Shown piece by piece: positions 21,770 to 51,800 of a stretch of 56,900 nucleotides of DNA. How positions within the stretch are numbered: position 1 is the first letter of the stretch; each line of letters opens with the position of its first letter. A program made the position numbers and the translations under genes. Source of the DNA: Prorocentrum cordatum (Eukaryota); assembly GCA_963575745.1 (NCBI GenBank), contig CAUYUJ010000056.1, forward strand, positions 62,001-118,900, given 5' to 3'. A model generated the notes under the pieces. The model did no database searches. It was not told the origin of the DNA and saw only the letters and a program-made list of their open reading frames with translations.

Positions 21770-24223
21770 CTACTTCCAGAGCGCTGCTTTGGTAGCGCTC
21801 AACCCTTCAGCTATCGTGGCTGGGGTCGGCGTGGCGTGCTTGTTTTTGTTGCGCAGATTGAAGGTCGGCGCTGTCCGCTGGATCGACCGCTGCAGCGAGA
21901 GGTCGCTGTCAGGATCAGACGGATCGGCGGCGGCGGGGCCCAAGCCCCAATGTGTAAGTGCGTTGCGGAGCGGGGGGGAGTCGGGGGACCAGAGGAGGCT
22001 CAGGAAGCCAGGGCAGGAGAGGTAGTGAGTGAACGAGTCGGGTGCCGCCTGGCATCCAAACACGCACTGCTTCTGCTGGAAGACGCGCATGCGGTGGGTG
22101 GTCGTCCATCCTCCAGCAAGCGTCTTGTAAACCGCCCAGCGCCAGCTGGGGCGGACTCTGCGGAGTGCACTGGTGAGAGCGGACCAGCGTGTCGCGAGCT
22201 CTGGGGCTGAGGGCGGCTGATGGATGCTCCATGCTGCGATGCGCTTCTCGAGAGTGGCTGTGAACGGCGACGAAAAAGAGGCGCGCTGTAGCGCGAGCGC
22301 GAGCGCGCGCTGCACCTTAGGGCGGCGCGGTGGCTCGGCGGCTGGGGACTCGCGGAGCTCGCGGGCAACTGCGCGGTTTGCCGCGGCCACGGCAGCTGCA
22401 GAAAACGGCGCGACGCGATTGCCGGAGGACAGGGCATGGTAGAATTGCACGATGGAAGTGTCCGCTTCCCAGAAGGGCGGAGACCGCTGCCTGGCCCCCC
22501 ACCGATGGAAGGAGTGAGCCGCGCTCTCCTCCCACGCGGTGTCTCGCAGACGCGCGTGGAATGGCCCCCATCCCCCACGCAGCGTGCAGGTTGCAGAACG
22601 AATTGCGGCGGCGACGGCAGAAATCTGAGCAGATCGTGGGACAGGAGGCGGGCACCACTCCGCAATTGCGATGAGATCTACTTTGCGAAACGTGTTCGGC
22701 GGCAGGCTGAGCATGTTGTGGAAGATGTAATGTTCACGGCGAGCAATCTTCAGATCAAGCGGAAAGAATTGTGAGACATAGCTGAGCGTCGAAACGACCG
22801 ATGCGTTGCGCAGGCGAACGGTGGCGCCACTGCCGCTCTCGACAAGCTGGAGAGAACTACCACGCTGCCACCATTTCTGCCCATGGGCGAGCCATTGCGA
22901 GACGACAGAGGCCGAGGGCCCGAGGAAGGCCCCGAGGTACTCGGCTCGCCCCGAAACCGAAAAGCCTCCCCAGGAGGGACAGAGGTCGGCCGGGAGGGCC
23001 TTCGTTCGGGCTGTGGTGGCAGGCGCTGCCTTCGTCCAAAGCGGGACGACGACGCACTTACGAGGCTTGAGCGTGAGGAGCGCGAGCTCTTCAGCAGCGC
23101 AAAATGGCTCAGATGTGCGGCGCAGCGTGTCGATCGAGGACGTGAGGAGGCCAGTGTCGTCCGCGCACACACCGAGGTAGCCCTTGTCGTAGTCAGGAGT
23201 GCCATCGACCGTCTCGACGAAAGAAGCGAGGTGCCGCACCACCCGGTCCATCGCGATCGCCCGCGCTGAGCCGCTCGCAGGACAGCCCTGCGCCGCGCTA
23301 GACGCGATCGGGAACATGAAGTGACGGACACCGTCGATCTTTGGGAAGCTGTTCGGGGCGTGGTACAGCTGGCGGAAGAGACTGAGCAGGCCCCCAGGAA
23401 CTCCGAAACGCCCCAGCGATGCGAAGAGCCAGACCCGTCCGCGCGACGGGAACGCCGCTGCGAAGTCGAAGCTGGTGAAGACGGGCTTGTGCAGCTCGGC
23501 GTCGGGGCGCGCCCCGGCACGGCGCATCTCCGCGTCTAGGTTGACGACGTGCTTGGAAAAAATGCGGCCGACGACGAAGCCCTGCTGTGCGTAATGCGTC
23601 CGCTCTGCCACAGCGGACTTGATGAGGAAGATGGCAGCGCCCGCGATGGCCTTGAAATCCGCGTTCTTGAAGGGGAGCGGGCGAGGGTCCTCTGGCAAGC
23701 GGTCCGTCGTGAGCTCGCCCGTGAGGTTGCCGCCCTTTGGGGGGAAGGCGAAGTCGGAGTCGTTCAGATCGTGGATCAAGTCAGCGTTGGAGCAGAGGTG
23801 CCAAGCGAGGTCCTCGAGCAAAACCAAAGACGCGCCGACGGCGAGCCAGGCGCGGTACGGCAAAAGGTCGGGCCCGGGCGCAGACGGCGCAGCGCGCTGC
23901 AAGAAGCCGCGGATCTGCGCCTTGGTGGGCGCGCCAACGTCGACGGTGGGGAAGAGCGGCATGTGCGAGGCGATGTGCTGCTTGACCTTCGCTTCGTCGA
24001 CCTGCTTGCGCTCGAAGACAGGGCGCCAGTGGTCGCGAAGTGCGTCCACCATCGCACAGCTCTCTCTGGCTACCCCAGGAAGGCCCGAAGGGCCGGTGGT
24101 TCTGATGCCCTGGAAGACAAGACGGCGCTTCCACGGGGCCCAAAGGAGGGCTCTGCGCTGGGACGCACGGGCGATCGTTCGGAGCTTCTCAGGCTCGATG
24201 GCCCCCGGCGTGCCCCGCGGCAA
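21770..24223 (-). CDS. LINE reverse transcriptase and C-terminal Cys/His domain (3' part of disrupted ORF2)
   Basis: Motifs APGPDLLPY, RPLPFKNADFK, QQGFVVGR, DFAAAFPS, QGCPASG, CADD, KPRKC, EYLG, and CVFGC...HYLSC. Confidence 0.9.
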   Translation of the reverse strand: MPRGTPGAIEPEKLRTIARASQRRALLWAPWKRRLVFQGIRTTGPSGLPGVARESCAMVDALRDHWRPVFERKQVDEAKVKQHIASHMPLFPTVDVGAPTKAQIRGFLQRAAPSAPGPDLLPYRAWLAVGASLVLLEDLAWHLCSNADLIHDLNDSDFAFPPKGGNLTGELTTDRLPEDPRPLPFKNADFKAIAGAAIFLIKSAVAERTHYAQQGFVVGRIFSKHVVNLDAEMRRAGARPDAELHKPVFTSFDFAAAFPSRGRVWLFASLGRFGVPGGLLSLFRQLYHAPNSFPKIDGVRHFMFPIASSAAQGCPASGSARAIAMDRVVRHLASFVETVDGTPDYDKGYLGVCADDTGLLTSSIDTLRRTSEPFCAAEELALLTLKPRKCVVVPLWTKAAPATTARTKALPADLCPSWGGFSVSGRAEYLGAFLGPSASVVSQWLAHGQKWWQRGSSLQLVESGSGATVRLRNASVVSTLSYVSQFFPLDLKIARREHYIFHNMLSLPPNTFRKVDLIAIAEWCPPPVPRSAQISAVAAAIRSATCTLRGGWGPFHARLRDTAWEESAAHSFHRWGARQRSPPFWEADTSIVQFYHALSSGNRVAPFSAAAVAAANRAVARELRESPAAEPPRRPKVQRALALALQRASFSSPFTATLEKRIAAWSIHQPPSAPELATRWSALTSALRRVRPSWRWAVYKTLAGGWTTTHRMRVFQQKQCVFGCQAAPDSFTHYLSCPGFLSLLWSPDSPPLRNALTHWGLGPAAADPSDPDSDLSLQRSIQRTAPTFNLRNKNKHATPTPATIAEGLSATKAALWK

Positions 24224-25506
24224 CTGGGCCGCTCTTTGTGCCAGGGAGCGTTGCCGAGCCTCGAAGTCGCTGCGCAGAGAGGATGGCGAACTCGGCGGCG
24301 TCCGAGAGCGCGATGACGCCGTCGTCCAGAACGAAGCACTTTGCGCCGGGCTCGGTGGTGGACTGCAGACGGCGTGCCAGATGGATGTCCTGGCGCCAGA
24401 TCGCTCGCGAAATCGAGCGTGCTGTGATCACCTGGCCGTCGGCGTGGTTTGTTTTGCCGATCTCTCCAGCTGCGCGGCTGATCCAATCATCGCGAACAAG
24501 ACGGGCAGCCTCAACCATGAGGCGCTCGTGCATGCGCCAGCGGTTCGCGATCGGCAGGTGGGTCGGGACGGTGTGGTCGAGCATCTGCTGGAGGTACTTG
24601 GCGAACGAGGGGTCGCGGAAGATGGCTGGGGGGATTAGCCTGCTCCACTGGCGGCGTCCTCGGCTTGATACCGATGGCGTAGGAGACGATTGCGCGGTCG
24701 CTGAGGAGGCGGTCCGACAGGATGGCAGGGTCGTGAGCGATGCGGATGACCCATGTGGGCTCAAGCAAGGCGCGCGACGGCAAGCTGATGAAGACCCGAT
24801 CGATGGCGGACGCAGTGAAACCGGACTTGTTGAAGCGCGTCGGTAGGTCGGACCCGACCTCCAGCATGCCGTCAAACAGGGCCTTCCAGAACGGCTGTTG
24901 CTGCCGAGCGCTGTTGTTCAGCGCGAGACGGGCGCGCTGCGGCTGCGGCTGGAAGAAGCTGTTCGGCGGGCGGCTGGCAGTGTGGAAGTCGCCCAGGGCA
25001 AGGAAGGTGCGGTGCACGCAGTTGGGGTCCGCCCACGTGCGGTGTTGGTGCCGGGCACGTTGAATGCGATCACGACCCCTGGCGTCGATCTCGTGATGAT
25101 GAACGTTCATGATGACGAGGGCGTTGCAGGTGACTGCGTTGGTGACGGCGACGATCTGGGCGCGGCCTTTGACGAGCTCCTCGTGGGCGAGGAGCGGGAG
25201 CTGGGACGGCTGCAGCTGTTCCAGCTGCGCGCGCGTGAGCCACGGGACGAGGGTGGCCGCGCCGCCCGTGCCAGCGCGCGCGTCATCGGCGGACTCGTCG
25301 ACGAACTGCGAAAAGAAGAGCTAGCACGGGTAAGGCTGGGTGTCGACCCACGTGCGGAGAAGCTTCTCCGAGCCATGGACCTCCTGTAGGACAATGACAG
25401 CGCGCTGGCGCACGTACTGCTGCAGAGCTACTTGTTTGCGACGGCGCATCGGGCGCTTGTGGCACATGAGCGCGCGGGCGTCCCAGGTGATGAACGAGCA
25501 GGGCAT
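24189..25506 (-). pseudogene. LINE APE-type endonuclease domain split across several frames
   Basis: ITWDARAL (TWN motif), VLQEVH, NVH, LGDFH (GDFN), IDRVF and LSDR (SDH) in ORFs 25321-25935, 24511-25110, 24189-24875. Confidence 0.85.
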
Positions 25507-25543
25507 GTTGTCCTCGACTGGCTTCCACGGTGCCCAGGGGTGG

Positions 25544-27423
25544 CTAAACCCGCCACGTTGCCTCAGCCGTGTCCGCGAAGAGCGCCTGGAAAGGAGTAAG
25601 GACGGCACTGCGACCGATGTCGTGGAAGTGAGCGAGCTCGAAGGCCTTCTCGTTCCACTCCAAGATGGCCGGGCCGGCTTGGCCCTTGACGTCCAGGCGC
25701 ACGACGGGCATGGCGTTGCAGTGGATCTCGCCCTTGGTGCGATAGGCCTTCCAAGCCTTTTGCGGATATCGATGCTGGAGAAGTTGGAGGAGTTCCTTGC
25801 ACTGGATCTCGGTGCGGATCTGCTTGGGGGCTTTGTCGGGGTTGAAGTAGATGGCTGTCGGCGCGCCCGTGGTGTCCGTTGATGTGAATCGCTTCCACTT
25901 CCCTGCGGCGTCACGAAGGGCTCGAGAGAGAGCAAGAGCCCGAGGAACTGCGAGGGCGCGATCTCCTCTCACTTGAAGAATGAAGCAGCGTGCAGGCTCA
26001 TCTTCATATAGCTCGACGGCGTCCGTGTCCAGGTTGGCAGACGCGATCCACTCATGCAGGTCGTTGAGAAGCACGCCAGGCGCGATGGGGCGTTGGGCTC
26101 CGATGGTGAAGATCGTCGGGTCGATCGCGCGGTCCCAGTCGGCGAGCCTGGCGAGGTCCGCGATCGGCGCTTGGGCCTCGGCGAGCGCGAGCGTCTCGCG
26201 CATCTGGTCGATCTGCTGCCACGTCCCTTGCTGGTCTGCAGCTTGTCGGTCCAGTTCGCGGCGGGTTCTAGCGACGACATCATGAAGGGCATCGGCTCGG
26301 CGTTCAGTGGCTTGTACTTGCTGTGTGAGAAGTTGACGAAGGCTTTCTCTGGATTGATGAAGTAGCTGATTGGCTTGCGCTTGGAAGGTGCTTGCTGCAT
26401 GTGCGCCTTGTGATTACATGAGTCTTGTAATGATTTGTCCAGGTCTGGGTCCAGCCCAGGGGGGCGAACAGGCTCAGGCGCAGGGCGTGGCTTGCTCGGC
26501 TTCAGCATGATGCGCGGCGGCGGCTCCTCCAGCGGTTGGTGGTGGTCCATGGCCGCGTGCCGCAGCAGCGTGAGCATATGTGGCTGCGCCTCCTTCGCGC
26601 CAAGGATCTGCTGCTCCTGCCAATGGATCGGGACGAGGTGCTACCGCGGGCTGCTGTGCATGAGGTTCAGTCCAGATACCATCGCGATATTGTTGAGGAG
26701 CAGCGTCGGCGGCAGCGCGTGGAGGATCGCGCGGTTCTTCTTCTCCAGTGCCCATGGCGAAGGTGGGCGTCTGCTGCGACTGGCGGGCTGGAGATCTGCC
26801 TGTTCGAGCTTCCTGTCCCGATGCTCTCCCCGAGCGTGACCCGGCTGGCTGCGAAGGGAAACCGTGGTCACCGTGGGTCGCCGCGGTATCGCGTGCAGCT
26901 GATGCACGGAAACCTTTATCTTCGCGCTCATGGGGTCCTCGAGGTGCGCGGTCAGATTCGCGACGTGGTCTTTCGCGGCGACGGTCTTTTCTTCGGCGGC
27001 TGACTGAGGGGGCTCCGCGTGAGGTAGATCGCTCTTCACTGGGGGACATGGCTGCGAATCGACGGGCGCTGAGCTGTTATGTGCTGCACCACTTACCAAC
27101 CTGAACCCGATGCCACTGCGTAGCTGCTGATGGCGCTGCTGCTGGGGAACGACAACGTCGACGCCCAGCGGGATATGGACCCGGAGCTCGGCGACGGAAG
27201 TCGGGCTGAGGCCCAGCTGTCGCCCGGAGACGGAGGTCTGGCCGATGGGCCGGGCAATGTGGAGGACAGCTTGCAATGCCAAGACTATGGGCAGGAATGG
27301 GCGGCCGCAAGCCCCTGATAGTAGCGGCAGGAAGCGCGAGTGCCAGCTCGCCCCTGGTTGTGGCTGGGAAATGACGGGGTCTGTCCTCGGCTCAGAGGTC
27401 TCCGCGCGGCCGCAAGGCGACAT
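25544..27423 (-). pseudogene. LINE ORF1 region, frameshifted
   Basis: Sits between the SL relic and ORF2; 25544-26203 reads as a globular domain (IYFNPDKAPKQIRTEIQCKEL); upstream pieces are in other frames. Confidence 0.6.
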
Positions 27424-27428
27424 GGTGA

Positions 27429-27450
27429 CTTGAGCCGAAATGGCTGCGGA
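27429..27450 (-). other. Dinoflagellate spliced-leader (DinoSL) relic at the LINE 5' end
   Basis: Minus strand reads TCCGCAGCCATTTCGGCTCAAG versus DinoSL DCCGTAGCCATTTTGGCTCAAG (20/22, both differences T->C); followed by TCACC-ATG (27423). Confidence 0.9.
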
Positions 27451-28027
27451 AGGAGGAGGTGGGGGAGGAAGAGATAGAGGAGGAAGGAGAAGGGGGGGGA
27501 TGAGGCCCCGTTGATGATGATGATGAGGAGGAGGAGGAAGGGGAAGAAGCCACTGGCCCAGGCGGGCTAGCCGTCGTCGTCGGGGCGGGCCAGGGTCGGT
27601 CGTCGTTCCACCCTCCCCCCCCCCCTTCGCGCGGCCTTCCCTTGGGCTGGGGCTCGCGCGCCGCGGCGGGCCATCGCCGCCGCCGCGTCGGCGCCCCCGC
27701 GGCGAGGAGGCGCAGCCGCTGCGTTTCAGGCCTGGCGGCCACGAGGCCTCGCGAGGGGCCTGAGCCTGCCTGGCACCGCAGGCAGCGCAGCAAGAGGGCA
27801 GCAGCGCGCGTGCTGCTCAGAGTGCTGGTTGCCGCCTCGACCTTGGCCGAGCACCACAGCACCATGGCACCTGAGCAGCCCGCTGGCGCTGCGCCTAGTG
27901 CTGGCCAGAGGAAGAAGTCCTCGGGCCCAGCCGTCGGGGAGAGCCCCTGGCCGCGGCGAGCGCAGCGTGCGCGCAGCGCCCAGCGCAACCAGCAGCACCA
28001 GACCAGCACTGGATAAAATCAGCAGCA

Positions 28028-28738
28028 GTGGCAGGGTCTGCTTGGCCCCAAGGCCAGCGGCAGCACAGCAACTGGCAGGAGGACACGCCTGCCGACAGGC
28101 GCAGGCGCAGCCGCCGCCCAACAGGCACCGCGGCCGCAACAGCAGGCCAGCAGGCGCCGCAGCCCCAGCAGCAGAGCGGCTTCACCGAGAAACAGCGCGC
28201 CGTCCTCGACATGGTGCTGCCCATGTCCTACGAGGAGGCGCAAGGGCACGAGTCGTGGAGCTCGCCGCCGCCAGACCCGGAGATGCTCGAGGTCTGGCGG
28301 AGGACCCGCAGCCAGCGCCTCGCCAGGCTGGCGGACAACATCGCGGGAGCGCGGTCCGCAGGTGCTGCGCTCGACAACATGGGATATGAGGCGGCGGCCA
28401 CGGCGGAGAACATCACGCTCGTGATCCCGCCGAAGGAGAGACTGCGCCAGCCGCGCTCCACCTTGGAGCTGGCCGAGGAGGAGCTCGCCAGCCTCCAGGC
28501 CAGGATCGCGGCACAGCTGGACGAGGAGGCGCAGGCCACCAAAGTCGCGCGGATCTACAGGGTGCTGATCCGGGAGACCAAGGACATGATGGCGAGAACC
28601 GCGGCCAGCGGCCCGCCTTCGGAGTCCGAGGCCGAAGGCGACGCGGAAGCCTCTGGCCGAAGCGGAGTCGGAGGCCGAGGCCGAGCGCAGACGCCGCATC
28701 CAGCGGCAGCCAGGCCCTCCAGGCCGCCTCTGGCATAA
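28028..28738 (+). CDS. Hypothetical protein fragment with coiled-coil segment
   Basis: Protein-like helical stretch STLELAEEELASLQARIAAQLDEEAQATKVARIYRVLIRETKDMM with GC-ending codons; no family recognised. Confidence 0.4.
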   Translation: MAGSAWPQGQRQHSNWQEDTPADRRRRSRRPTGTAAATAGQQAPQPQQQSGFTEKQRAVLDMVLPMSYEEAQGHESWSSPPPDPEMLEVWRRTRSQRLARLADNIAGARSAGAALDNMGYEAAATAENITLVIPPKERLRQPRSTLELAEEELASLQARIAAQLDEEAQATKVARIYRVLIRETKDMMARTAASGPPSESEAEGDAEASGRSGVGGRGRAQTPHPAAARPSRPPLA

Positions 28739-28846
28739 GGCCCTGGGCCCCCGCCCAAGGCAGCAGCCCGCCCAAGGCCGCCAGCTGCCCCTCAGCCTGC
28801 CGGCCACCAAGAGGAGGCAGCCAAGCTACGCAGCCGCGAACAGGCC

Positions 28847-29803
28847 ATGGCCCAGAAGACCTTGCGCGCGGTCTCCGAGCAGCTGGAGCGCCAGCAGCGA
28901 GGCCACGAGCGCGAGGTTGAGGCTGTCAGGAGTGCCGCTCACCGCGAGCTCGAGCACGAGCAGGCCGCCTGCCGCAAGTGGCAGAGCGGGAACAAGCAGC
29001 ACCAGCAGGAGGAGGCAGGCGCAGCGCTTCAGCAGCTGCAGCGCCACCTCGCCACGCAGGCCCAGGAGGCGCTCCAGGGGCAGAAGAGGAGCTCCGAGCA
29101 GGAAACGCGTGCCATGATGGAGGCAGCGAACAGGGCTCGGCGAGGCGAGGGGCAGCGCCTGCAGCTGGCGCGCCAGGAGCGCGAGCGCCGCCACCGGACA
29201 CGCGCCGAACTGGAGAGCGAAGCGCTAGCCTTGGCCCAGCAGGCGCGAGCTTCGGAGGCGCGGCGCGCCGTGGAACTGGGCCACCAGGAGGCTCGGGCAG
29301 GTCAGGAGATGATGGCAGCGCACCTCGAGCTCCAGACGAGGCAAGCGGCCATGGGGGCGCACCACTCGCAGCAGGAGAGGCGGCTCGTCGCGTTTGGCAT
29401 GGAGCAGGCCGAGGCCCACCAGCAGGGCAAGCGGCGCCTCGAGGAGGGGGCCTGGCAGGCATTGGCAGGCGTGCGAAGGCCATCGGAGGAGCACCGCGCC
29501 AGCAACCGCCGCCTCGAGCAGCAGGCGGAGCAGGCGCCGCGCGACGCCTTCCAGCACCTGCAGTGGGTCCATCACGACAACGCGAGGATGCACTGGGAGC
29601 TGCAGGCCCGCCACGAGCAGGAGACGGCGGCGCTCAGAAGCGCTCTCAGGCACGCCCTGGGCGAGTTTTGGATGACGGGCGACGCGCCGGAGCTCGGCGC
29701 AGGGGGGGAGCTGAATCCGTCGCCCCTGTCCGTTGAAGCCTCGGGGGCCAAGGCGGCCCCAAGAGGATCCCAAACGCCCCGCAGAGCCCCGAAGGGCCCC
29801 TAG
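28847..29803 (+). CDS. Hypothetical Q/E/A/R-rich coiled-coil protein (same frame as the preceding ORF, possibly one disrupted gene)
   Basis: 318 aa open frame dominated by CAG/GAG/GCG codons with heptad-like composition. Confidence 0.45.
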   Translation: MAQKTLRAVSEQLERQQRGHEREVEAVRSAAHRELEHEQAACRKWQSGNKQHQQEEAGAALQQLQRHLATQAQEALQGQKRSSEQETRAMMEAANRARRGEGQRLQLARQERERRHRTRAELESEALALAQQARASEARRAVELGHQEARAGQEMMAAHLELQTRQAAMGAHHSQQERRLVAFGMEQAEAHQQGKRRLEEGAWQALAGVRRPSEEHRASNRRLEQQAEQAPRDAFQHLQWVHHDNARMHWELQARHEQETAALRSALRHALGEFWMTGDAPELGAGGELNPSPLSVEASGAKAAPRGSQTPRRAPKGP

Positions 29804-30689
29804 ACCCCCAAAGCAGCGACAAGCGGGCTCCAATGGCGCCCCAGCTTGCTCCGTGAGGACACCAAGAGAGACCCGATATGGCCCCTGAGAGACCCCGAGA
29901 AAACGCATTCAGGGCGGCTTTTGCACTGCGCGTGTCTAAACTTCCCTGGCCATGGCAACTCGCCAGACGATATGTTTCTGGGCGGGTTGGCGGGTTGATT
30001 TTTGTTTAATCGGCGGCCGCGGGCGAGCGCGCCAGCGGCGAGCCCAGTCAGAACGGGGCGCGCAAAGACGAATTAGCCTAAAGCGGTGGGCCGAAGCCTC
30101 GCGCTGTACCTCAGCGGCCAGGCCGGCGAGCGGGAAGGGGCTGACAGCACCTGCTGAAGAGCTGCACTGCCAGGGTGCACGCATGCAACGCGCCGCGAGG
30201 AGGGGCTGGCTGCCAGGGTGGACGGCGGCCAGGGCCTGCGAGCTGCCAGGATATTGAATGCAGGGGCGTAGGCGCCCATGGGACTGCGGAGGTACCAGGG
30301 TGGCCGAAGCCAAGAGAACCGACTGCCACAAGCAGAATTGCGCGCCCAGCGGGGGCGCGAGCATCAGCAAGCTGCGGAGCACCAGGGCGGCCGAGGCCAG
30401 GAGGCCCAACAGCAGCGGATCGCAAGAAAGCGAGTGACTTGAGCAACCGAAGCTGCAGCGCGGCCAAAATGGCGCGTAGGGGCGCCACGGGGGGGCCGGG
30501 GAAGCAACTCAGAGAAGCCCGAGCAGCGGGCCGAGGCCTGGCGGGTGCAAGAGGTGGCGCCAGCGAAGTCGCGCAAAAAGGGTTGGAGGGTAGACGCGAA
30601 GCGCCAGCAATTTTTCACTCGAGCCAAGCAAGGTCGACGTCATATCCCAGCGGGAAAAACCATTCCCATGTTCAGCTCACCAGATCCGT

Positions 30690-31200
30690 CCTGCCCCATG
30701 GTTTCACACACATGGCGATGCTTCCCCACTGCGAAGGGGAGAAATCACGCGCAACATCCATGTACCAATCTTCAGAATTGCTGGCTGCATCCCGACTGCC
30801 GTACATTGGTTTCATCAATGTTGCACACATGTTTGCTTCACGATCATCTCGAGTAGTCTGATGAAGGTTTTCTTATTGGACTTGGTGTGAAAAGTTCGCC
30901 CGTCTAACGTCTATAAACGCCAACTCTAGTCCTGTCTCACGCGCCCCACGATCAGCGCGTGGATTTCCAATGGGGGTGTGGCTGCAAAGATGTTCTTCTC
31001 TTTGGAATGTGACTTAACTTGTTGAGCCAAAAGACGGGATCGGTACTCACGTCTCGCCCCCCTTATTGATGTCACCACCTCGTGCCACTGCGGGCTTTGC
31101 CAGCAACCGCCCAACATTCCTCCTCTTTTTATACGTTCGTGAACCTCACGTTTCTTAATGGCTCCATCTCCTCCTCGCGGGTTCTTAACGTGAGTTCTGG
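30690..31200 (-). pseudogene. Ty1/Copia reverse transcriptase remnant
   Basis: YRSRLLAQQVK..IFAATPPLE; then AFIDVRRA (~30895-30922) and LMKPMYGSRDAASN (~30776-30820); broken by stops and frameshifts. Confidence 0.8.
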
Positions 31201-32622
31201 ATTGAGCTTACTCCCGCACACACATCATCCCACGCTTGTGCTTTCCATGTTCGCGATGAACTTCGCATATGTCACCTCTGGTAATTGTTTGCGCCTCATC
31301 AGCACTCTCACGCGCCTCTCACGTCCCGGGGTTTGTAACCACCCTTTGGTGTTGGCACGCCCCACAAATCCATTGGCGCATTTCGTGGCGACGGTGCGCG
31401 CTCCTCCTCTGAATTCTCTCCTCCGCTCTGATCTCGCTAAACCCCCTGTCCTCGACCACCTGGCCAGCGTCCAAAACCCTACGTAGGCAGGCCCTCCATG
31501 TGGGCCCGGAAATCCCTTAAAGCATGGGACACGATGTGCCGTAATCTGTTCTTGCCCAAGCTGAAATGGGTCAGTTTCCACTCGTTTGATTCGTGTCCGA
31601 CCTCGTTAATTTATGCTCCTCCATCTGGTTCATTCCAATTGACCAAATGGACCTCAAGATCACAAGCTCTGAATGAACGCCCTAACCCGTCATCGGCCCT
31701 CATCTGGTTCACTAGGCCCTGAGGTGTAGCTCGACACAGTCGTTCTGGGTACATCTCCTCTGGATATGTCCTCCAGTTAACTCAGTGCGCTGGCGCTGGC
31801 CTTGACATGTCGCGCCGAAGGTGTTCCAATGCATGGGGCTGTTCGCCATGAGCCGCGCGGGTTTCTTCATGACCCCCTCCTCATTTTAACGCTTGTTTCA
31901 GGTCATAACAACGAAAATCGCCATCGCATGTCTGCGCGTGGTCGTGCTCTAACATTGCCTGCATTGGCGACGCGGTCCAACTTGAAGCACCCGAAGAGTG
32001 TTCGAAGAGAAAATAACGCCTACTGATTCTCACGTACTTCCAACGCAAACTTGAAGCGTTCAACCGCATAACCTATCATTTCCCCCATTCGTTCTAGCCC
32101 AAGCCTTTTTCGAATTGAAGGCCTGGAATCTGCGAAAGGCTGCGCTATTCGCACCCGGCGCACCCCGCCCAGGGCTCTCCAGCGCGTCGCGAGGCGAGCG
32201 TTTCCGGCGCGATCGCCCCCGATGGCCGGGGCCGCCCCTGGCAGCCTTCACTGCGCTGCGGCGCGGCGCCCCAATCTCGGGGAAAGCGCAGCGTCTCTAG
32301 AAAAAGAACAAACGCCATAGATATAACCCTTTGACGCTCCGCGCGAATTTCTTGGACTCGTGCTGGACCCCTAGGCCCTAGGCGCGGATTCAGGAAATCC
32401 GCGCGGAGCGCCAACACATTCTGTTTATGTTTACGTGTTTTTTCTTCTTCGACCCATCCCTGGGGAGACGCAACATCTCACAAACATTTCGCTAATTTCC
32501 GGTTGCGGACGCGCGCTCCCTGCTGCCGTCGCAGGGCGCACCGCCAGGTCTTGGCCTTCACGGCCCTCCTGGCCCTCTGGAGCGGCAGGGGCCGGACCGA
32601 GAACTCGAAGGGCAGCAGGAGG

Positions 32623-33285
32623 TTTTTCCCAACCATCCTGTGGTGTTGGGTCCTCGTTTTGAAAAGACAATCCCCGCGTTCCCTCCTTCCTTCCTCCTCC
32701 TCCTCCCTCCTCCCTGCGTTTCACCCACCCAGTACAACGTTTCGTGGCCCCATAGGGAGCTCCGCCGAAGCCCCCAGTGGGACCGTCCGGGACGCATGAA
32801 TTTGTCGCTTTCACCCACCCAGTACAGCGTCTCGTGGCCCCATAGGGAGCTCCACCGAAGCCCCAAGTGGGACCGTCCAGGACGCATGAATTTGTCGCTT
32901 TCACCCACCCAGTACAGCGTCTCGTGGCCCCATAGGGAGCTCCACCGAAGCCCCCAGTGGGACCGTCCGCATGCGTCCCGGAAACCCAATTTGGCATTTT
33001 CAACCACCCAGTACAGCGCTTCGTGGCCCCATAGGGTGTTCCACCGAGGCCCTCAGTGGGACCGCCCGTATGCGCCCCACACACCCAATTTGGCATTTTC
33101 GCCCATCCAGTGCAGCGTTTCGTGGCCCCATAAGGAGCTCCACCGACGGCCTCAGTGCTAGCGCCCGCCTGCGTTCCCCCCCACCCAGTGCAGCGCTTCG
33201 TGGCCCCATGGGGAGCTTCACCGAAGAAGATATTCACAATCGCGGCACCCACAACTGCATATGGTTGGGTCCTTCGCCAGGATAT
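32623..33285 (-). repeat. ~90-99-bp satellite array with purine-rich spacer and TTCAAAACGA-hairpin terminus
   Basis: gtggccccataggg anchors at ~32745, 32835, 32925, 33023, 33122, 33200; terminal motif 32623-32663; CCCAACCAT (32628-32636) is inverted to ATGGTTGGG (33261-33269). Confidence 0.8.
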
Positions 33286-34095
33286 TTTTGTTTGGATTGC
33301 GGGGCTGAGGGAGCATGAAGCCTGTCAGCGGAGAAGTGGCACACACCTAGACAAACAAAAACGTAGCTGAACCCCAAACAATGTAAGAAAGCATCGACTG
33401 AGGAAAACAATACTAGTGAGAATATTCGGCACGGGCCCCAAGGATTCAAATCCAGACAATGCGAAGGGACCCCCGCAACGAAGCGGACGGGACGCGTTGA
33501 ACCGAAGCGCTGAATCCAGAACTCCCTCCCGAATCCTTTCTTGAACCCCCAATATCCACAGCAGGCAGCTTGGCAGGAGGAGTGGGAAGGAGGGTGAAGG
33601 AAGAACGAACTGCAGGAGCAGTGACATGACAATGGTTCAGCGCAGCTCCAAGAAATCCGCGCGGACCGCCACAAGTTTGTGTTTTTTTGCTGCTGATTCT
33701 TCGATGAGAGGAGGAGGAGGAGGAGGAGGAGGAGGAGGAGGAGGAGAAGGAGGAGGAGGAGGAGGAGGAGGACGAGGAGGAGGAGGAGGAAGAGGAGGAG
33801 AAGGAGCAGGAGCAGCAGTGGACTGAGGAGAAGGAGCAGGAGGAGGAGGAGGAATAGGAGGGGAGGAGGAATGACGAGGAAGGGAGAGGAATGATAAGTG
33901 ACGCAGAAGAGCGACACGAGTGCATCGGATTTCTCGGGCTGGTGCTGGATCCCCCCCCCTGGCGCGCGGAGAGCGCCGGGGTCGGTGCCGAGGGCGCCGC
34001 GAGGGGGGGGCCCGGTGCCGTCCCAAGACATCTCCGCGGGCCTCCGAAAGCCTCACCAGCACTCTGGGAGTACATACGTAGATGGTCTAACAAGT

Positions 34096-35689: not shown

Positions 35690-36917
<1,228 letters not shown>

Positions 36918-37417: not shown

Positions 37418-38227
37418 TTAGCCGCAACTAACTATTTGTCGGAGTCGGCTCAACTTAAGTGACTGGATTGCCTGCTCCAACGCCCGGGCAAACAGGAAAC
37501 AAAAACGACCAGGGTAAGGTTCAGCAGCACTGGTCCAGAGTTTGCCCGAGTTTGGGTCACGGCCAGAAAAGATGATGTGGCGTTTGCCTGTAAAACTGCA
37601 CTGGCCCGAACGCCCGCGACAGGGCCCTGGGAGGGAAATCCGACAACTTGAACTCCAGACCTGAACGCGGGTGCGCTTCCGCCGGCGGGCTCCGAGGGCG
37701 CAAAAATCCACAACACACTGATGGCTATCTGGCCGCCTTGAAAGGCGGGCAAGCTGAGCAGTTTGCCAAATATAACTGCTACTGGGATTCTCCAAAGCCA
37801 CTGGAACATGGTTGCTACGGCAGGCACGAATCAAGGATAGACAGAACTTGAGCTGATAATTGCCCTTCTCACAGGCTAAGCGAGCACGCTGACTGAGGTT
37901 AGGTAAACCCCACAAATGAGAAGGGCTTCTGAGACGGCACCAACTACTGTTTGGGGGCCCATGCCTAGCCTGGGACCAGGAGCAGCAAGGAGTCCCCATC
38001 CAGAGACCGACGACGACGCCCCCCGTAATCCACCCCCGCACCATCTTCTGAATGCAAAGCCTATCCAGATTGAACCAGGTGGGCTTTAAAATGTCGACCG
38101 ACACGACCCCAAAACCGAGGTTTCGCATCGCCTTGGAAACGCCCCCCTGGCCAAAGTAAAGTTCCAGAAAAACTTGCTTCCTAGAGGCCCGAGCAGAGGC
38201 AAGCGCCTTTCTCAGCACTCGCCGCAT
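37418..38227 (-). CDS. C5-cytosine DNA methyltransferase-like protein (~269 aa, frame open)
   Basis: Motif I FLELYFGQGG, catalytic motif IV GTPCCSWS, motif VI LENP, motif VIII RKRT, C-terminal AEPYP; ATG at 38227 overlaps the end of the YR frame. Confidence 0.85.
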   Translation of the reverse strand: MRRVLRKALASARASRKQVFLELYFGQGGVSKAMRNLGFGVVSVDILKPTWFNLDRLCIQKMVRGWITGGVVVGLWMGTPCCSWSQARHGPPNSSWCRLRSPSHLWGLPNLSQRARLACEKGNYQLKFCLSLIRACRSNHVPVALENPSSSYIWQTAQLARLSRRPDSHQCVVDFCALGARRRKRTRVQVWSSSCRISLPGPCRGRSGQCSFTGKRHIIFSGRDPNSGKLWTSAAEPYPGRFCFLFARALEQAIQSLKLSRLRQIVSCG

Positions 38228-39320
38228 CCCCACCCTGACTTCGGCGTCGCTGAGCGAGGTCCCATGGGAAGCGCCGGCAGCGGAGGCAGGCCCTCGCGTT
38301 TGAGGAAGATCGCCTCCAGCCTGGCGGCGACGCGCCGCCCGAACTCGAGCGTCTGGGCTGGGGCCCCGTGCAGCTCTGCCAACGCTCTTGCCTCCTTGCC
38401 GTGCCTTTTCAGCATCGCATCTGAGTGCCACCTTCCCCTGGACTTGACCTCTAGAGCCGAGCGCGCCTTCGTCAACAGGTCGTGAGAGCCTCCGCCGCGC
38501 CGCAGGCCGTAGACGGTCAACCCCATCTGGCCCAGGCCCAGAGCCTCCGCTGACACCTGCGTCTCCATCGACAGGTCGTTGCGTGCAAAGCTCCACAGCC
38601 TGTCTGTCACGCGCTGCCTGCGCCGCTTCAGCACCGAGAGGCACTCGTAGAGATACCCGACCCCGTCCAGCACCACGCTCTCGTCGAAGGCGCCCACCTT
38701 TGTCGGAGCTCCCAGCTCGCTCGGTCCTAGCAGCAGCGCCCAGTGCTGCTGCCCGAACCCTGCGCCTGCATGGGCGTCAAGCGCGTCCAGCTCGCCTGGG
38801 CGGAGGTAAGCGTTGAACGCCAGCAGCAGCGCGACAGCGTGCTCCAGCAAGCCCCGCGACAAGAGGTGCCCCGCCAGCGCCGCCGCCAGGAGCCACGGCA
38901 CAGGCGCCCGCGTTGCCCGCGGAACAACCTTGGCCCAGCCAGCCAGCGCCCTGGTCGCCCTCGGCAAGCCCTGTGGACCGTACCTGCCGACCTCCGGGTA
39001 ATAGAACTTGACCGCAGCAAAGGTCTTGCTGGCCACGTCCCCAGCGCACCCCAGGAATAATGGCCTGTCCATGTACAGAACCAGCGCCAGGTCGAGCTCC
39101 TCGACTGAGGTCCAGCTCAACCCTGCCTGCAGTGCCCATCCCAGAAGGGCCTTGGCTCTCCTCTGGTAGTCCGCGAAGGTCGCCTTCGCCACTGACCTCG
39201 ACTCCAGGAAGGACGGCGGGCACGAACCCGGGAGGGGCGTCGACTCGGGCGATGGCGCGTGGCACCAGGTCCTCCTGGCGGCCGCCGCCGCAGTCGACAT
39301 GATGCCAATCATCTTCATCC
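38212..39320 (-). CDS. Tyrosine recombinase (expected catalytic Tyr appears as His)
   Basis: N-terminal SFLESRSVAKATFADY; box I FNAYLRPGEL; box II YGLRRGG..GRWHSDAMLKRHGK; start position approximate within ORF 38212-39636. Confidence 0.85.
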
Positions 39321-39479
39321 AGTCGTCTTGAGGGGCCTCCAGCTCCGTCCTGCTTCGCGTGCGCGACCGACTGCTCCTGGCCTGCGCCGAAGCTCGGGAA
39401 CTCTGGCACGGCTGGCAGCCCCCCGCGCTCATCACCAGCAGAAGCAGACTCCAGCTTGGCACCCTCCTCCTCCAGCTGC

Positions 39480-40309
39480 GGCTTGAGAAAGTACAGGCCT
39501 CGCGAAGGGTTATCCGCCGGGTTCCTCGCGGACGGGGCCCAGCGGACACGCGCGTGGAGGCGGCGAGCCAGGGCGAGGGCGCTGATCTCCCGAAGGATGC
39601 CCCTGAAATCCGAGGATCGGCCCTTTCCGGCCGCAAGGGCCAGCCCCAGGAGAAGCACGCGATGTCCGAAGGCTTTCTGATCTCGAAGGAGATGCCGAAG
39701 GGCGTTGGACAAAGCGAGACCCTCCAACCTCAGTGTGTTCGCTGGGCCCCGCCAGGGGAACGACTCGACGATATGCCACACCTCTGGGTCCGTGAAGCTC
39801 GCGTCGACCATGTCGAAGGCCCTCGCGTGCTCATCGGCCTGGCGCAGGCTGTCCGGCAGGTCGTCTAGCGCCAGCAACTGCTCCAGCTCGGCGTCCGCCT
39901 CCTCGCCCCCCAAGGCGTGGGCTCGCGCAGCCGTAGCGCCCTGGCGGTGCCGCCGGCGCTCGGCCGTCCGCCCCCAGCGCGCGATCTCGTCCAAGTTCGC
40001 CACCCGCTCGCAGACCCCGCAGCCCCAGTGAGACGCGTCGCTGGCGGTCACCTTGCCGTGCCAGTCGGCGTTCGCGTGGGCCACCATAAGCGGCAGCAAG
40101 CTCCTGACATGCCGGAGCTCCTCCTTCACTGCCGGCCACAGCTCGCCTTCCTTTGTGCCCATGGCACTCATGTGCGCATACACCGAGCTGAACGCCGACA
40201 GGGAGGACCGCTGAACCATCATAATCCAAGTCGCATGCCCTACCACGATCTCGAAAACGTGCCCCGAGCAGGTGCGGCGGCCCAAAAGCTCTTCGATGGC
40301 CAGCCTCAA
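39480..40309 (-). pseudogene. DIRS-type RNase H domain
   Basis: ASDASHWGCG, TLRLEGLAL, KGRSS, RWAPSARNPADNPSR; the expected DN before KGRS is missing (deletion). Confidence 0.85.
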
Positions 40310-40312
40310 CCT

Positions 40313-41660
40313 TCAGATGCGCTCGGTGGAGACCCGAACGGTGCGCCCGCGCCCGTCAAACGCGAGGCCCACGAAGTCGGCCTGGTCCACCGCCCCGTCG
40401 GTCTCCTCATGGATCGTGAAGCCCTGGCTGGAAAGAGCCTCCGCAGCAGCCTGACCTGCGGCGCAGACGTCCTGCATGGGCGAGCCCATCACCATGAAGT
40501 TGTCGGCGCACGCAGCTGCCCCAAGCGCGCGCCCAGGCCCCAGCGGGCGAGAGGCCTCGCGATCCTTCGCCAGGGAATCAGCCCACTGGCCGCCGCGCGA
40601 AAGCCCTTCCTCCGTCACAAGCTGGCAGCCCAGCTCCAGCCCATCGGCAACACCGCCAGTACCGGAACCAAGAGTGTCGAAGCGCTGCGGCCCCGCATGC
40701 CAACGGCGCCCCCGCGGAGCGCAGGACGCCTGAAGCAGGTCCCCAACTCTTCTGGCACCTCGATGGCGTAGAAGGCGTTGCTGATGCCCCCGCTGCTGAA
40801 CCAGACGATGTCGCACTCCTGGGCCTCCAGCTTCGCGAACGCCGCGGCTGGGGGCAAGTGCGTCGACGGCGGCGGCGCGAAGTCGCAGTTCGCCAGCCTG
40901 GCGTCGAAGATGATCCTCTGCATCTGGTTATTTTTCTTAACAAAGAACAGGCCCACCGTTGCATTGATGTCGCCAAGCTTCTCGGCGGGCACTAGGCGAG
41001 CCATGCCGCGACTCACCAGCCCAGTCACAAAATCTCCGTGCACTCTGTGATCCCGAAGCGCTGGGTCGAGATAATGACGTAGAAGTCCGAGCTCAGACCG
41101 AATGCCAGCCGCTGCAGCTGGAAGTCTTCGCTCGTTGGCCGTCAGATCCCTCGACCAGGTAGGGTGCTCGGCTGGCAGCGCATCGCCCGGTGAAACAGGC
41201 CTCGCCCCCTACAGCCGGCCAGGACACAGCGTCCTTGTTGTAGGGCACGACGGTTGTAGCGCAGTCGCCGTGCATGGCGGCGCTCCCGCAGAGCTCACAG
41301 AGGCCCCCGCGGCGACACACATCTGCTGGACAGACGCCCACGGCGCAATAGCTGCGCTCCAGATGCTCGAGGCATCTCCGCTGCACAGCGCTGACGGCAC
41401 CATCACCAGCAAGATCGCGCCCAGCAAGTGAGTTGAGGAACTGGATGCCATCCTTGGCCCAGTCGAGCGAATGACGGCGGCGATGAGCACGACGGGCGAC
41501 GGCGCGGCAGCCTACGCCAGTCGTAGAAGGGACAGGGAGAAGAGGCAAAGGGAAGATGTCGCGCTGGCGCATCGTCACCTCGCGGCCGAAGATGTAAGAG
41601 CCTGCGCGCCCGGGGCCGGGGAGCAGCAGGCAGCCTTGATCGATGAGGTACGGGAGGAAG
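40313..41660 (-). pseudogene. DIRS-type reverse transcriptase, disrupted
   Basis: RDIFPLP, GLFFVKK..QRIIFDAR..N, ISNAFY, LPMGWSWA, CADNF, FVG; frameshifts near 41180 and 40620 and an in-frame TGA at 40313-40315. Confidence 0.88.
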
Positions 41661-43660: not shown

Positions 43661-44100
<440 letters not shown>

Positions 44101-46210: not shown

Positions 46211-46539
46211 TGTGTTACCGTTTGCTTAAAACGAGCCCGGCCCTGAGCCCGGCCCTCGCTGTCCAGATGCCGCCCAGACCCCCCTTCTGAGTCATCAGAT
46301 GCTCTCTTTTGACACCACTAGAAACCTATCAGTCTTCGCTGTTAGGAAAAAAGCAGCGATTGAAGCATTTGACTGGCGAAGAGCACAACCCTTTCTCAAA
46401 ACGAGGCGACTATGAGCAAGACCGCTCAATACACGATAATACTGTAAGGGGCCTGTGGTACCTCTGAACGCTTCGCCAAAGACGTCAAACCACCCTGAAC
46501 GTGTAAGGGGTATGCCCAAATGTAGCAGGGTCCATATGG

Positions 46540-47390
46540 GGCCACGAAGAGGCGATGGCTGTGCAACCGGGGCCTTCAGCGGAGCCCCCTAGGTGGTTAC
46601 GGAGCGCGGGAGGGGTGTGGCGACATGGGGCGGGGCGCCATGCGAACGCAGCCACTGGCCACTAGGGCCTTCGGTGGAGCTCCTATGGGGCCACGAAGCG
46701 TGTGCGGTGCGTGCCGAAAAGGGGCGGGTCACCAAGCGGGCGCAGCTACTGGAGCCGTCGGTGGAGCTCCCTATGGGGCAAATAAACGTGTGAGCTGTGT
46801 GCCGAATGGGTCGGGTCACCATGCGGGCGCAGCCACAGAGGCCGTCGGCGGAGCTCCCTGGTGGGCCACGAAGCGGGCCTTCGGAGTTATTCCCTATGAG
46901 GCCACGAAGCGTGTGAGAGGTATGCCGAAATGGAGCGGGGCACCATGCGGGCCACTGGAGCCTTAGGCGGTGCTCCCTATGAGGCCACGAAATGTGCGAG
47001 GTGTGCCGACATAGGGCGAGTGGATTACCACGCGGGCGCAGCCACTGGGGCCTTGGGTGGAACCTTACGGGGCAACGAAACGTGGTGTGTGTGTGCCGAA
47101 ATGGGGCGAGTTCCCATGCGGGCGCAGCCACTGGGGGCCACGAAGCGTGTGAGAAGTTGGCCGAAATGGGGCGGATCACCATGCGGGTGCAGCCACTTGG
47201 GCCGTAGGCGGTGCTCCCGATGGGGCATGAAGCGTTTGAGGGGCTGTGCCGAAACGGACATGCGGAAGGCAGAGCAACGAGGGGAGGAGAATACCGAGAG
47301 CAGATGAGGGGGAGGAGGAGGAAGGAGGAGGCACGCGGCGCTGCGGATTCAAAACGAGGACCCGACTCACAGGAGGGTTGGGAAGAACAG
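46540..47390 (+). repeat. ~90-bp satellite array with purine-rich spacer and TTCAAAACGA-hairpin terminus
   Basis: Same family as 2190-2830; terminal TTCAAAACGAGGACCCGACTCACAGGAGGGTTGGGAA at 47348-47384. Confidence 0.8.
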
Positions 47391-47447
47391 ACGTTCGGAC
47401 GTCCGGGCCCCCCTCTGGACGAAGAACAATCGGACTAGACATAAACT

Positions 47448-49490: not shown

Positions 49491-50819
49491 CCGCTTCGCC
49501 CGACGCTTTGGCGATGTGTCGGCGACGTCGACCTGGAGACATTCGCTCGACGGCGGCACCGCCCCGTTTTACTCGCGCTGGCATCCGCCAGCCCCGTCGA
49601 CCCCTCGGAAGCGAAGTCGAACCTGGAGCGCCCCCTTCGGGCGTCCTGGGGGGGACAAAACGAAGGCGGGAGGAGAACAATATCGGGACGAGATCGGAAA
49701 CAATGAACCTCCGAGGGTCGGCCGTGTTTGACCGATCCGGGTTCCGAAAGCGGCCCCCGGAAGCCGCAATGAAAGAGAACCCGCGGGATTGAAAAACACT
49801 TACCTGACATCCGCCGATCTGATTGCTTCAATCCGCGGCTCCAAAAGTCACGACCGTTTTCCTGAGTGTAGTCTTTCGTGCCGAATTCGTTTGTAGTGGT
49901 CCAGGGGTTGTAAGCGGCCCTCGAAGGCCGAAATCGAAGGAAAACCGCCGGTTGAAAATTTATATAGTTAGAGATCTGGGTATCGTCGGTAGTGCGGGGA
50001 GTAACGGCGCGATGCGGCATACCTCCTGGCGGGCGGATAATATGCTCGACATGCCGGTTGCAGCCTTGTCGACCTCCCCTCGTCTGGGCTGCAAGCGTCA
50101 CTGGGCCAGCGCGCTCCCTCAACTTTCTGTCCGCCTGCTCCTCCTTCTTCTTTTCCTCCTCCTCCTCCTTCTCCTCTTCCTGAAAATATGACAGGGGCTT
50201 CTCCCTGGATGCAGATAGTACTTGAACCAAACGACGTCGGTCGACACACGCCGGCCGGTCCTAACCAAATCGTGTCCGGTACGTTCCGTGCTGCACTTGT
50301 AAGAACAGCCTGCTCGCCCAATCGGAACGTTCAAATCTAACACCCGCCCCGGCTGATGAATCGACAAGAGGGACGGGCGATATGCAAACGCGACTGGGTA
50401 ACGGAAGAGTTCTGAAGAAATACGCAGCGCAGTGAGGCCAGGACTCCATCCTAGCAGGTCAGAGTATGAATACGAAGCCATTGAAAGCATAACCTGTACA
50501 AGCATAAGGCGGCGATGATTTGGGCGTGAACGCGCAAGGGCCTCCTAACACGCGGTACGCTATTTCAGAATGTCGCAGAGCACCAGATTACGCATAATGG
50601 TTAACACGTTATCTAGTGTGTGTGTGTGTGCGTGAGTGTAGACGAACACCCAGATCTCAACTGAATCCTGAGCCCAAATGCCTAGCAGAGCGGCACGCGA
50701 CACTTCATAGCAGGTTCCAGCTCGTGCCTTCCTCTAGCCAAATGTTTACTGATACCTCGTATCTGCATGGACATGTTGTCGTTGCTTACACATTTAGTCA
50801 ATGCATATGCAAGCTTCTC

Positions 50820-51800
50820 ATGAGTTTCTACTTTGATCACTTTGATGTCTCCTCGTCTTACTTTCTGTTGTAATCAAAGCTGACAGACCTCGACGTGCCT
50901 GACTTTGCTCGATCCCTCGCCGGATAGCAATAGCAACGGCTGCGCTGACATCGCTGTTCACTGAGATGCCACCATCAACGTCGAAGTATCCGAGAACTGC
51001 TTGCAGCCATAGCTTTGAGCCACCGTTCACAATTCCGCGATACTCTGCTTCTCCAGAAGATACCGCCACTACTCTCTGAGCCGAAACCCGCGACTTTATC
51101 AAATGTAATCCCCATATTACTGCTCTTCCATTTGTTGACTCACGTGTTTTCTTGCAACCGGCATAGTCGTCGCCAGTCCACGCAGTTAACCCCATTGGGC
51201 GTCATTGGTACAAATACTGCTACCTAACTTGTCGTGGCTCTTGGGGTGCTCGCCCAATTTCGCATGGCCTTTCCATGCCCCTCGAGTTGGGGCCGACATT
51301 GAGCGCGCACATCTCACTCTGTACTGCTCCATGCCAAGATTTCAAAAATGCAAGATGATTTTGGTGCGCCTCATGCCATAACCCATCCTGGTTAAATTCC
51401 ACAATGCGGTTGAGAATCCTTTTTGAATTCAAATATTTGGAACCATAGATTTTCACTGCAAACTCATCATTTATCCCCCTTCGAGCCAGTCAAGATGAGA
51501 AACACTGTCCAAACGAACGCACAATCATGTCCGTGAGCTATTTGCAAGATTCGCCGAGCCATATGTTTGACCACCTATGGCGATGCTGTTCCCCTAGTCA
51601 AAACCAATGACACGTGCAAAATCCACACGACATAACCAGATACCCAGTTGCTGGCGGCGCCCCGAAGGCCCATGGACTTTAGTAGTCTTCCGCGCATGCC
51701 CTGTTCGCGACCTTCGAGTAACCTCATGAAGATGTTATTCTTGTCCTTGGCGTAAAAGCATGCTCGCGCAGCGTCTAAGCTTGAGCCATCTCTCGCGCCC
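50820..51800 (-). pseudogene. Ty1/Copia RT-RNase H remnant
   Basis: LDAARACFYA..GRLLKSMGLRGAASNW; RILNRIV..GLWHEA; GDDYAGCKKTRESTNG..QRVVAVSSGEAEY..SDVSAAVAIAIRRG. Confidence 0.85.

Follow-up and report, generated by a model that had tools for sequence, protein, structure and literature searches.

Skewed replacement of catalytic residues in dead dinoflagellate retroelements probably reflects ordinary decay in a GC-rich genome

We present an analysis of point decay in a 56,900-nucleotide stretch of Prorocentrum cordatum DNA (contig CAUYUJ010000056.1, positions 62,001 to 118,900; hereafter the window), which is repeat-rich and has an overall guanine plus cytosine (GC) content of 0.611. The window contains three dead retroelement copies, all on the minus strand: a long interspersed nuclear element (LINE, 21770-27449) tagged with a spliced leader, a DIRS-like tyrosine-recombinase (YR) element with a predicted DNMT-fold domain (37421-41578), and a Copia-like fragment. 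A first reading of the sequence (the original prediction) had noted that conserved residues of these copies are replaced by way of A:T to G:C steps, the reverse of repeat-induced point mutation (RIP) and of CpG deamination, and had proposed a repeat-inactivating mutational system based on 5-hydroxymethyluracil (5hmU) or on strong GC-biased conversion. If true, this idea would establish a genome-defence mutator opposite to RIP and CpG deamination and tied to 5hmU, which would be a new principle. The results described below indicate that the skew is confined to formerly constrained non-synonymous positions. It is probably the ordinary relaxation of dead coding sequence toward a GC-rich equilibrium, seen through AT-rich codons and enhanced by ascertainment.

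The LINE retains a long open reading frame (ORF) for its reverse transcriptase (RT), with a GC content by codon position of 0.64/0.56/0.76; over all LINE frames, GC at second positions (GC2) is 0.45-0.56 and GC at third positions (GC3) is 0.76-0.84. Motif C of the RT (23156-23167) reads CADD, and since the relatives at 63-93% identity all carry CADD, this is the family consensus rather than a product of decay. The apurinic-like endonuclease (APE) domain upstream is dead and carries three catalytic-motif replacements. It is recognized through a related copy, P0002, residues 1-262 of which align by tblastn with 62% identity on 25413-24625 and the APE part of which scores against Pfam Exo_endo_phos (PF03372) at E=8.9e-7, while the window's own APE ORF has no Pfam match at E<=1. 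The GDFN and SDH motifs are intact in P0002 (68% identical) and in the distant copies P0003 and P0004; P0007 keeps GDFN but has SAH at the SDH position, and WN is kept in P0004 and P0007. With an RT domain and an upstream Exo_endo_phos endonuclease both present, the element can be classified from its sequence as an APE-type non-LTR (long terminal repeat) retrotransposon, that is, a LINE.

The dinoflagellate spliced leader (DinoSL), for which the consensus printed in PMC6050394 was used, has a single match of its 21 nucleotides in the window, with two mismatches, and none in 100 shuffled sequences. Both mismatches are T>C relative to that consensus, as originally described. The match marks the window as nuclear DNA of a dinoflagellate. 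The depth of LINE-family contigs falls from 60-170 over 21770-26545 to 13-19 over 26546-27341. Because the relic lies at the 5' side of the element and the family depth falls there, the data suggest that full-length LINE copies derive from trans-spliced transcripts. The relic is located about 2 kb upstream of the endonuclease, and the drop in depth toward this end resembles that of 5'-truncated LINE copies. The LINE fragments 63-93% identical to the window RT (P0009, P0011-P0022) bear a EukProt label of a prasinophyte (Pyramimonas sp.), which may reflect contamination, prey DNA or a mislabel.

The RT of the YR element is divergent, and Pfam does not detect it in the window copy. Its homologues score below the Pfam RVT_1 threshold (27.2 bits against a cut-off of 29.6), a profile built from eight of them matches a maturase RT at E=8.7e-4, and the YVDN and DAS motifs of the polyprotein were read directly from the sequences. 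Among 75 aligned homologues the motif-A aspartate is present in 94% and the tyrosine of YVDN in 90%. The RT thumb and RNase H part retrieved 2282 proteins at E<=1e-3, 39 of them at E<=1e-30, in a phmmer search of 1.84 billion representatives. About 138 homologues align over the in-frame TGA, and 94 of them have the conserved tryptophan that it replaces, which bears out the original view that this stop arose by G>A. In the RNase H region (about 39600-39700, minus strand), the residues VDN, including the conserved RNase H aspartate, are missing by eye relative to the 75%-identical P0030; they appear to have been lost by deletion rather than by substitution. The recombinase domain occupies yet another frame, and its R..K..HxxR..Y motifs, which we take to be the catalytic residues of the tyrosine recombinases, are conserved in five relatives, all five of which have the tyrosine. 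Pfam Phage_integrase matched neither the window ORF nor P0025 or P0026.

The C-terminal domain of the YR element has the predicted fold of a C5 cytosine methyltransferase (C5-MTase), an assignment made by fold. Its AlphaFold2 model has a mean pLDDT of 85.1 and a pTM of 0.85, and the top PDB matches listed by Foldseek are all C5-MTases (DNMT2, DNMT1, MET1, DNMT3A/B, M.HhaI and M.HaeIII; E 4.8e-6 to 2.8e-4, TM 0.34-0.44). No Pfam family, DNA_methylase included, scores on this domain; phmmer of P0039 against PDB sequences found no methyltransferase, and the PDB profile search was weak. The element resembles SymbioDIRS-Dnmt3, the DNMT-bearing DIRS of Symbiodinium, in that one element combines RT, RNase H and a C5-MTase-fold domain with a tyrosine recombinase in a frame of its own, and also in that Pfam sees the RT poorly, a point remarked on as well in the consulted part of PMC5890265. 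It differs in that the window copy is dead and Pfam DNA_methylase gives no score, and the likeness is one of domain architecture. As a by-product, DNMT-fold-bearing DIRS-like elements emerge as a very large family, judging from the above 2282 representatives at 50% clustering. Two pairs of direct repeats may be terminal-repeat pieces of the YR element: 36918-37098/37206-37388 (183 bp, 96.7% identity), which adjoins its 3' end, and, further on, 34096-34216/35026-35146 (121 bp, 99.2% identity).

The third copy is a fragment of a Copia-like pol C-terminal (RNase H) region. It has no Pfam match, and its assignment follows a protein-atlas lead with a score of 0.89-0.90 to clusters named 'RxLR effector 161-like', RVT_2 being present in 17% of the cluster at rank 15. 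The fragment has a GC content of 0.50 and a GC3 of 0.42. Together with its surroundings (50300-52400) it stands at 0.50-0.52 GC against 0.61 for the window, which would fit a younger or foreign insertion. The positions of all these features are collected in Table 1.

Table 1. Positions of the retroelement domains, replaced residues and satellite arrays in the window
Feature	Position	Strand	Remarks
LINE reverse-transcriptase ORF, P0001	21770..24427	-	885 codons open; Pfam RVT_1 E=7.2e-8, 32.8 bits vs cut-off 29.6
LINE APE domain, dead	24685..25491	-	in-frame stop; frame differs from RT ORF
APE W-N motif, N>D (GAC)	25480-25482	-	
APE GDFN>GDFH, N>H (CAC)	24982-24984	-	
APE SDH>SDR, H>R (CGC)	24694-24696	-	
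DinoSL relic	27429..27449	-	5' side of LINE; two T>C vs consensus
YR-element RT	40490..40938	-	spread over two frames; DIRS-like element
YR RT motif A, D>G (GGC)	40786-40788	-	
YR RT YVDN>CADN	Y>C (TGC) 40508-40510; V>A 40505-40507	-	
YR-element RT thumb and RNase H part	38780..40315	-	phmmer
TGA stop replacing conserved W	40313-40315	-	W in 94/~138 aligned homologues
Tyrosine recombinase domain	38215..39240	-	another frame; alignment with 5 relatives, 4 at 60-73% identity
YR nucleophile, Y>H (CAC)	38401-38403	-	
YR HxxR box, H>R	38497-38499	-	plus R>H nearby
C5 cytosine-methyltransferase-fold domain (predicted), C-terminal in YR element	37421..38230	-	AlphaFold2 + Foldseek
Copia-like pol C-terminal (RNase H) fragment	50821..51201	-	translation; protein-atlas lead
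Copia-like G (GGC), originally read as D>G	51172-51174	-	
Copia-like R (CGG), originally read as W>R	51088-51090	-	
Satellite array, 89-99 bp	32743..33178	-	non-coding polarised comparator; broader array region 32516-33311
Further 89-99 bp satellite arrays	2205-2805, 46498-47226	+	

The main source of paralogous LINE copies is a set of contigs from sequencing run X1, compared with the window over 21770-33700; the YR element and the Copia-like fragment lie outside this comparison. A 308-nucleotide X1 contig is identical to the low-copy stretch 30828-31135, and X1 therefore comes from the same organism as the window. Since X1 contigs also cover the LINE at a word depth of 60-170, they sample paralogous LINE copies from that organism. 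Of two further runs, X2 yielded no contigs matching this stretch and X3 six short pieces less than 90% alike, and neither enters the argument. In a self-BLAST of the window neither the LINE nor the YR element had a second copy, and none of the 91 pattern matches to the LINE ORF in a scan of metagenome contigs was confirmed. The segments 1-21700 and 51300-56900 contain no Pfam-recognisable host gene beyond a sub-threshold NOA36 match to a GAG-repeat ORF at 19116-19532, so the window offers no single-copy coding comparator. Below, r denotes the per-site AT>GC rate divided by the GC>AT rate, GC* is the implied equilibrium GC content, and counts are given as AT>GC:GC>AT.

All eight codons listed in the original prediction occur in the sequence as written, and all are on the minus strand. 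The claim that these residues are derived, and not the family consensus, is borne out by comparison with relatives for six of the eight (three in the APE, two in the YR RT, and the YR nucleophile); for the two Copia-like sites no homologues were obtained. Under kappa=2 and per-site rates equal in both directions, the probability that all eight changes are AT>GC is 0.002, or 0.035 when compositional changes only are considered, and it rises to 0.12-0.26 given a GC-ward bias of r=1.86-3.2. The Copia-like fragment, being far below equilibrium GC, should show mostly AT>GC changes anyway.

Systematic counts gave the same direction at constrained coding positions. In the LINE RT, compared with 15 closer LINE copies at columns covered by at least three of them, the one-step amino-acid changes derived in the window comprise 9 AT>GC, 3 GC>AT, 6 neutral and 3 ambiguous cases. 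The recombinase domain of the YR element yields 7:2 (four close copies, 250 columns), and the columns conserved in the YR family (163 columns, each kept in at least 80% of at least 15 homologues) yield 9:1 plus one W>TGA. Among 99 deeply conserved LINE columns the count is 3:4, and changes private to other copies amount to 27:27 for the LINE and 9:7 for the YR element. Pooled without overlap, 25 of 34 compositional changes are AT>GC (25 of 35 with the stop). If per-site rates were equal, these codons would be expected to show an AT>GC:GC>AT ratio of 0.63-0.79, against which the pooled count has P=0.0001-0.0002. The same count has P=0.12-0.18 against r=2.44, the bias of this LINE over all its sites.

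On the sense strand T>C is about as frequent as A>G, and this strand symmetry upholds the original argument for a process acting on DNA rather than RNA editing. A related proposal places the changes before insertion, in the RNA or cDNA, where transcript editing or errors of the reverse transcriptase would have produced them, so that they would not be genomic decay. Both main elements have an RNA intermediate (a processed transcript in the case of the LINE, as its spliced-leader relic indicates), and dinoflagellate organelle editing tends to raise GC according to the part of PMC11453091 consulted. However, near-equal T>C and A>G are unlike the work of a single editing activity, and the same balanced spectrum is found in satellites, which have no RNA stage; we consider this origin very improbable.

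The picture is different when all sites are counted. The comparison with X1 contigs contains 1573 variable places, of which 581 have AT in the window and GC in the reads, 697 the reverse, and 295 are of other types. Depending on the polarity assumed, r is 1.47 or 2.12, and GC* is 0.60-0.68 against an actual GC of 0.638. We viewed individually the 40 best-supported places (2-14 contigs per place), at which every contig is unlike the window; the changes derived in the window comprise 21 AT>GC, 16 GC>AT and 3 others, with GC* 0.71. Twenty-three of these places fall in LINE coding frames, where the non-synonymous changes are 10:5 and the synonymous changes 1:6 (Fisher p=0.063 on 22 compositional events). 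Transitions account for 17 of the 21 AT>GC changes, and no preferred sequence context stood out among these 17.

A CpG is created in the window at 9 of the 21 AT>GC places. Among the 17 AT>GC transitions 7 create one, which by a rough estimate on few sites is about what the TG/CA frequency leads one to expect. These CpG-creating places also bear on the suggestion that the direction is largely an artefact of polarisation, in which the window copies would belong to older subfamilies and some 'derived' states would be ancestral, for example where CpG has decayed to TpG elsewhere. In its favour, each comparison uses few copies, with 2-14 contigs at a place or 3-8 proteins. At the catalytic residues, however, 75-138 deep homologues with 35-45% identity point to the same ancestral state, so polarity is safe there, and we think it improbable that polarisation explains most of the skew.

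Non-coding repeats provide further spectra. The 89-bp satellite, with 20 copies polarised on their consensus (nhmmer and hmmalign), gives 27:59, r=1.17 and GC* 0.54. Arrays of 73, 101 and 155 bp together give 27:27, r=1.69 and GC* 0.63; the 101-bp array is near-uniform and contributes little information (5:4), and the alignment of the 73-bp array includes two poorly homologous flank rows that add some noise. Interruptions of 23 trinucleotide microsatellites are 14:12 for all variant units and 9:10 for distinct variants (r=1.43, GC* 0.59), at odds with the original claim that microsatellites drift toward GC-rich units. The tract 11500-11850, which had been given as an example of such drift, has no definable ancestral unit and therefore cannot be polarised. 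The wider tract 11480-11850 is imperfect and rich in GTC, GCC and ATC; its reverse complement reads as an acidic Asp/Gly-rich low-complexity peptide without a Pfam match. The 89-99 bp satellite has a word depth of 1.15e5-2.6e5 in run X1, which makes it a hugely abundant repeat, and its arrays occur in both orientations in the window.

Over these sets AT>GC exceeds GC>AT about 1.2-2.4 fold per site, and GC* ranges over 0.54-0.71 against observed values of 0.61-0.66; in the transposable element (TE) sets the bias reaches r of about 3. A GC-ward pressure on the per-site rate, as originally proposed, is thus upheld, and the skew of decay persists at non-synonymous and conserved positions (25/34), but it does not extend to the all-site, silent, satellite or microsatellite spectra.

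Pseudogenes and dead transposon copies decay neutrally toward the compositional equilibrium of their host, and the window resembles such decay in its balanced all-site spectrum, in the agreement of GC* with present GC and in the converging composition of its codon positions. What sets it apart is the GC content of the host, which is unusually high for a dinoflagellate; in the portion of the table consulted in PMC11453091, published genomes range from 45.9% to 59.7% GC.

We propose that point decay of the dead copies follows the ordinary substitution regime of the genome, in which AT>GC would be about 1.5-2.4 times as fast per site as GC>AT. The bias would hold composition near 0.60-0.70 GC, and at such a GC-rich composition a per-site bias toward GC leaves the two directions balanced over all sites. 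The GC-ward pressure itself could be mutation bias or biased gene conversion. The structure of the genetic code would then shape what is seen at catalytic residues: the codons of N and Y can be left by transition only via AT>GC, those of D and H have AT>GC as one of two transitions, and for W the remaining transitions give stops. Relaxed constraint would add to this effect. Selection had presumably kept GC at codon positions 1 and 2 well under that of silent sites, and after the death of a copy these positions would rise in GC and third positions would fall. A gain at first and second positions together with a loss at third positions is not what a one-way mutator produces and fits the relaxation of differences among codon positions. 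GC* lies near the observed GC in the satellite, the other arrays, the microsatellites, all variable places and the 40 best places, as in a stationary GC-rich regime, and a single stationary process would account for all site classes.

RIP of fungi inactivates repeated elements by point mutation. It is unidirectional (C>T), has a dinucleotide preference, affects a duplicated segment at all its positions and reduces its GC. The window shares with it repeated elements that have been inactivated through point mutations, but its spectrum is bidirectional and without an outstanding context, and TE GC equals flank GC. No one direction dominates the all-site repeat spectrum (581:697 or the inverse; 21:16), and the changes are not independent of codon position (10:5 against 1:6 in the 22 events above). 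Nor are repeats shifted in GC relative to unique DNA: the LINE is at 0.654 and the YR element at 0.647 against 0.638 for the low-depth flank (possibly an old repeat itself), and the Copia-like fragment is at 0.50. The idea of a repeat-inactivating, reverse-RIP system had been advanced with the reservation that a symmetric polarised spectrum would speak against it. The raw all-site counts are symmetric or slightly GC>AT-rich, and together with the opposite directions at silent and non-synonymous sites and the composition of the elements they leave the idea without support.

The 5hmU route deserves separate consideration. It supposes that 5hmU placed on repeats is occasionally oxidised to 5-formyluracil (5fU), whose pairing with G would lead to T>C on one strand and A>G on the other, so that a GC-ward load helps to kill transposons. 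In the parts of the sources consulted, TEs of A. carterae (PMC11572971) and repeats of B. minutum (PMC11071213) are enriched in 5hmU, and ionised 5fU pairs with G in vitro and reads T-to-C in a chemical mapping protocol (PMC11071213), which provides a chemical route for the idea. The r of about 3 in TE sets, the presence of A>G as well as T>C on the sense strand and the predominance of transitions among the AT>GC changes are in line with it. Against it stand the balanced all-site spectrum, the silent sites at 1:6, a TE GC not above that of the flank, and the Copia-like fragment at 50% GC. Amphidinium carterae, moreover, has 44.6% of its T as 5hmU and yet a genome of 44.8% GC (PMC11572971, consulted part). 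The window involves the same lineage and target class as the 5hmU silencing mark, LINE, LTR and Ngaro-type elements being 5hmU-rich in PMC11572971. The difference is that PMC11572971 and PMC11071213, in the text consulted, describe transcriptional silencing and chromatin and propose no mutational role; 'mispair' occurs in neither paper, 'mutagen' does not occur in PMC11071213, and 'mutation' occurs twice in PMC11572971, outside the text consulted. We judge the 5hmU explanation improbable, and a transposon-targeted 5hmU-driven mutator is not supported. The 5hmU densities of individual TE families, in the supplements of PMC11572971, may be relevant to this explanation.

Several observations weigh against ordinary relaxation as the whole explanation. 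The TE sets give r=3.22 whereas the tandem repeats give r=1.38 (likelihood-ratio p=0.007), the amino-acid changes derived in the window are 16:5 against 36:34 private to other copies (Fisher p=0.049), the pooled 25/34 has P=0.026 when set against r=1.86, the value matching 65% GC, and the YR element alone stands at 9:1 over its 163 conserved columns. The design of the comparison adds further reservations. Polarity was assigned by parsimony, and subfamily structure could reverse calls, the 9 CpG-creating places among 21 being possible CpG decay elsewhere; 40 of the 1573 places were individually visible; the satellite consensus may be mis-polarised through concerted evolution; the silent-site count consists of seven events; and the other copies were drawn from separate data sets, whose organisms and GC contents may differ.

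The TE and tandem-repeat sets differ in site type and in the way polarity was inferred, and the excess in the former could come from site classes, mis-polarised concerted arrays, source organisms, GC-biased gene conversion (gBGC) or, least likely, a process focused on TEs. A version of the last, in which dispersed copies gain AT>GC changes 2-3 times faster per site than tandem repeats by way of 5hmU and 5fU, so that the silencing mark doubles as a slow mutator, seems to us hardly probable. Gene conversion, allelic or ectopic between copies, might affect dispersed TE copies more than satellites, and weak-to-strong (AT>GC) changes would then be fixed in dead copies at a rate above that expected from the mutation spectrum alone. 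The higher r of the TE sets and the high GC3 of the LINE frames (0.76-0.84) agree with gBGC, which the consulted part of PMC7299967 offers, as a hypothesis only, for the high GC3 of Symbiodiniaceae, while itself assuming the effect to be small. The window is like a gBGC system in its per-site excess of weak-to-strong changes and in its GC3, but GC falls at the silent sites of the dead LINE (1:6), TE GC equals that of the flank, and the link to recombination is an assumption here. We regard gBGC acting preferentially on dispersed TE copies as an unlikely source of the skew, and relaxation to a GC-rich equilibrium remains the probable one.

The results call for caution in reading the direction of decay from catalytic residues, as the genetic code biases that direction. 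A further by-product is a first polarised spectrum of substitutions, if a small one, for a dinoflagellate LINE of high copy number; in the titles and beginnings of abstracts that the literature search covered, supplements aside, we found neither a polarised dinoflagellate TE spectrum nor a mutational role of 5hmU. TpA is strongly depleted across the window (observed/expected 0.30-0.51). CpG is without depletion (0.89-1.14), although CpG methylation is reported for dinoflagellates.

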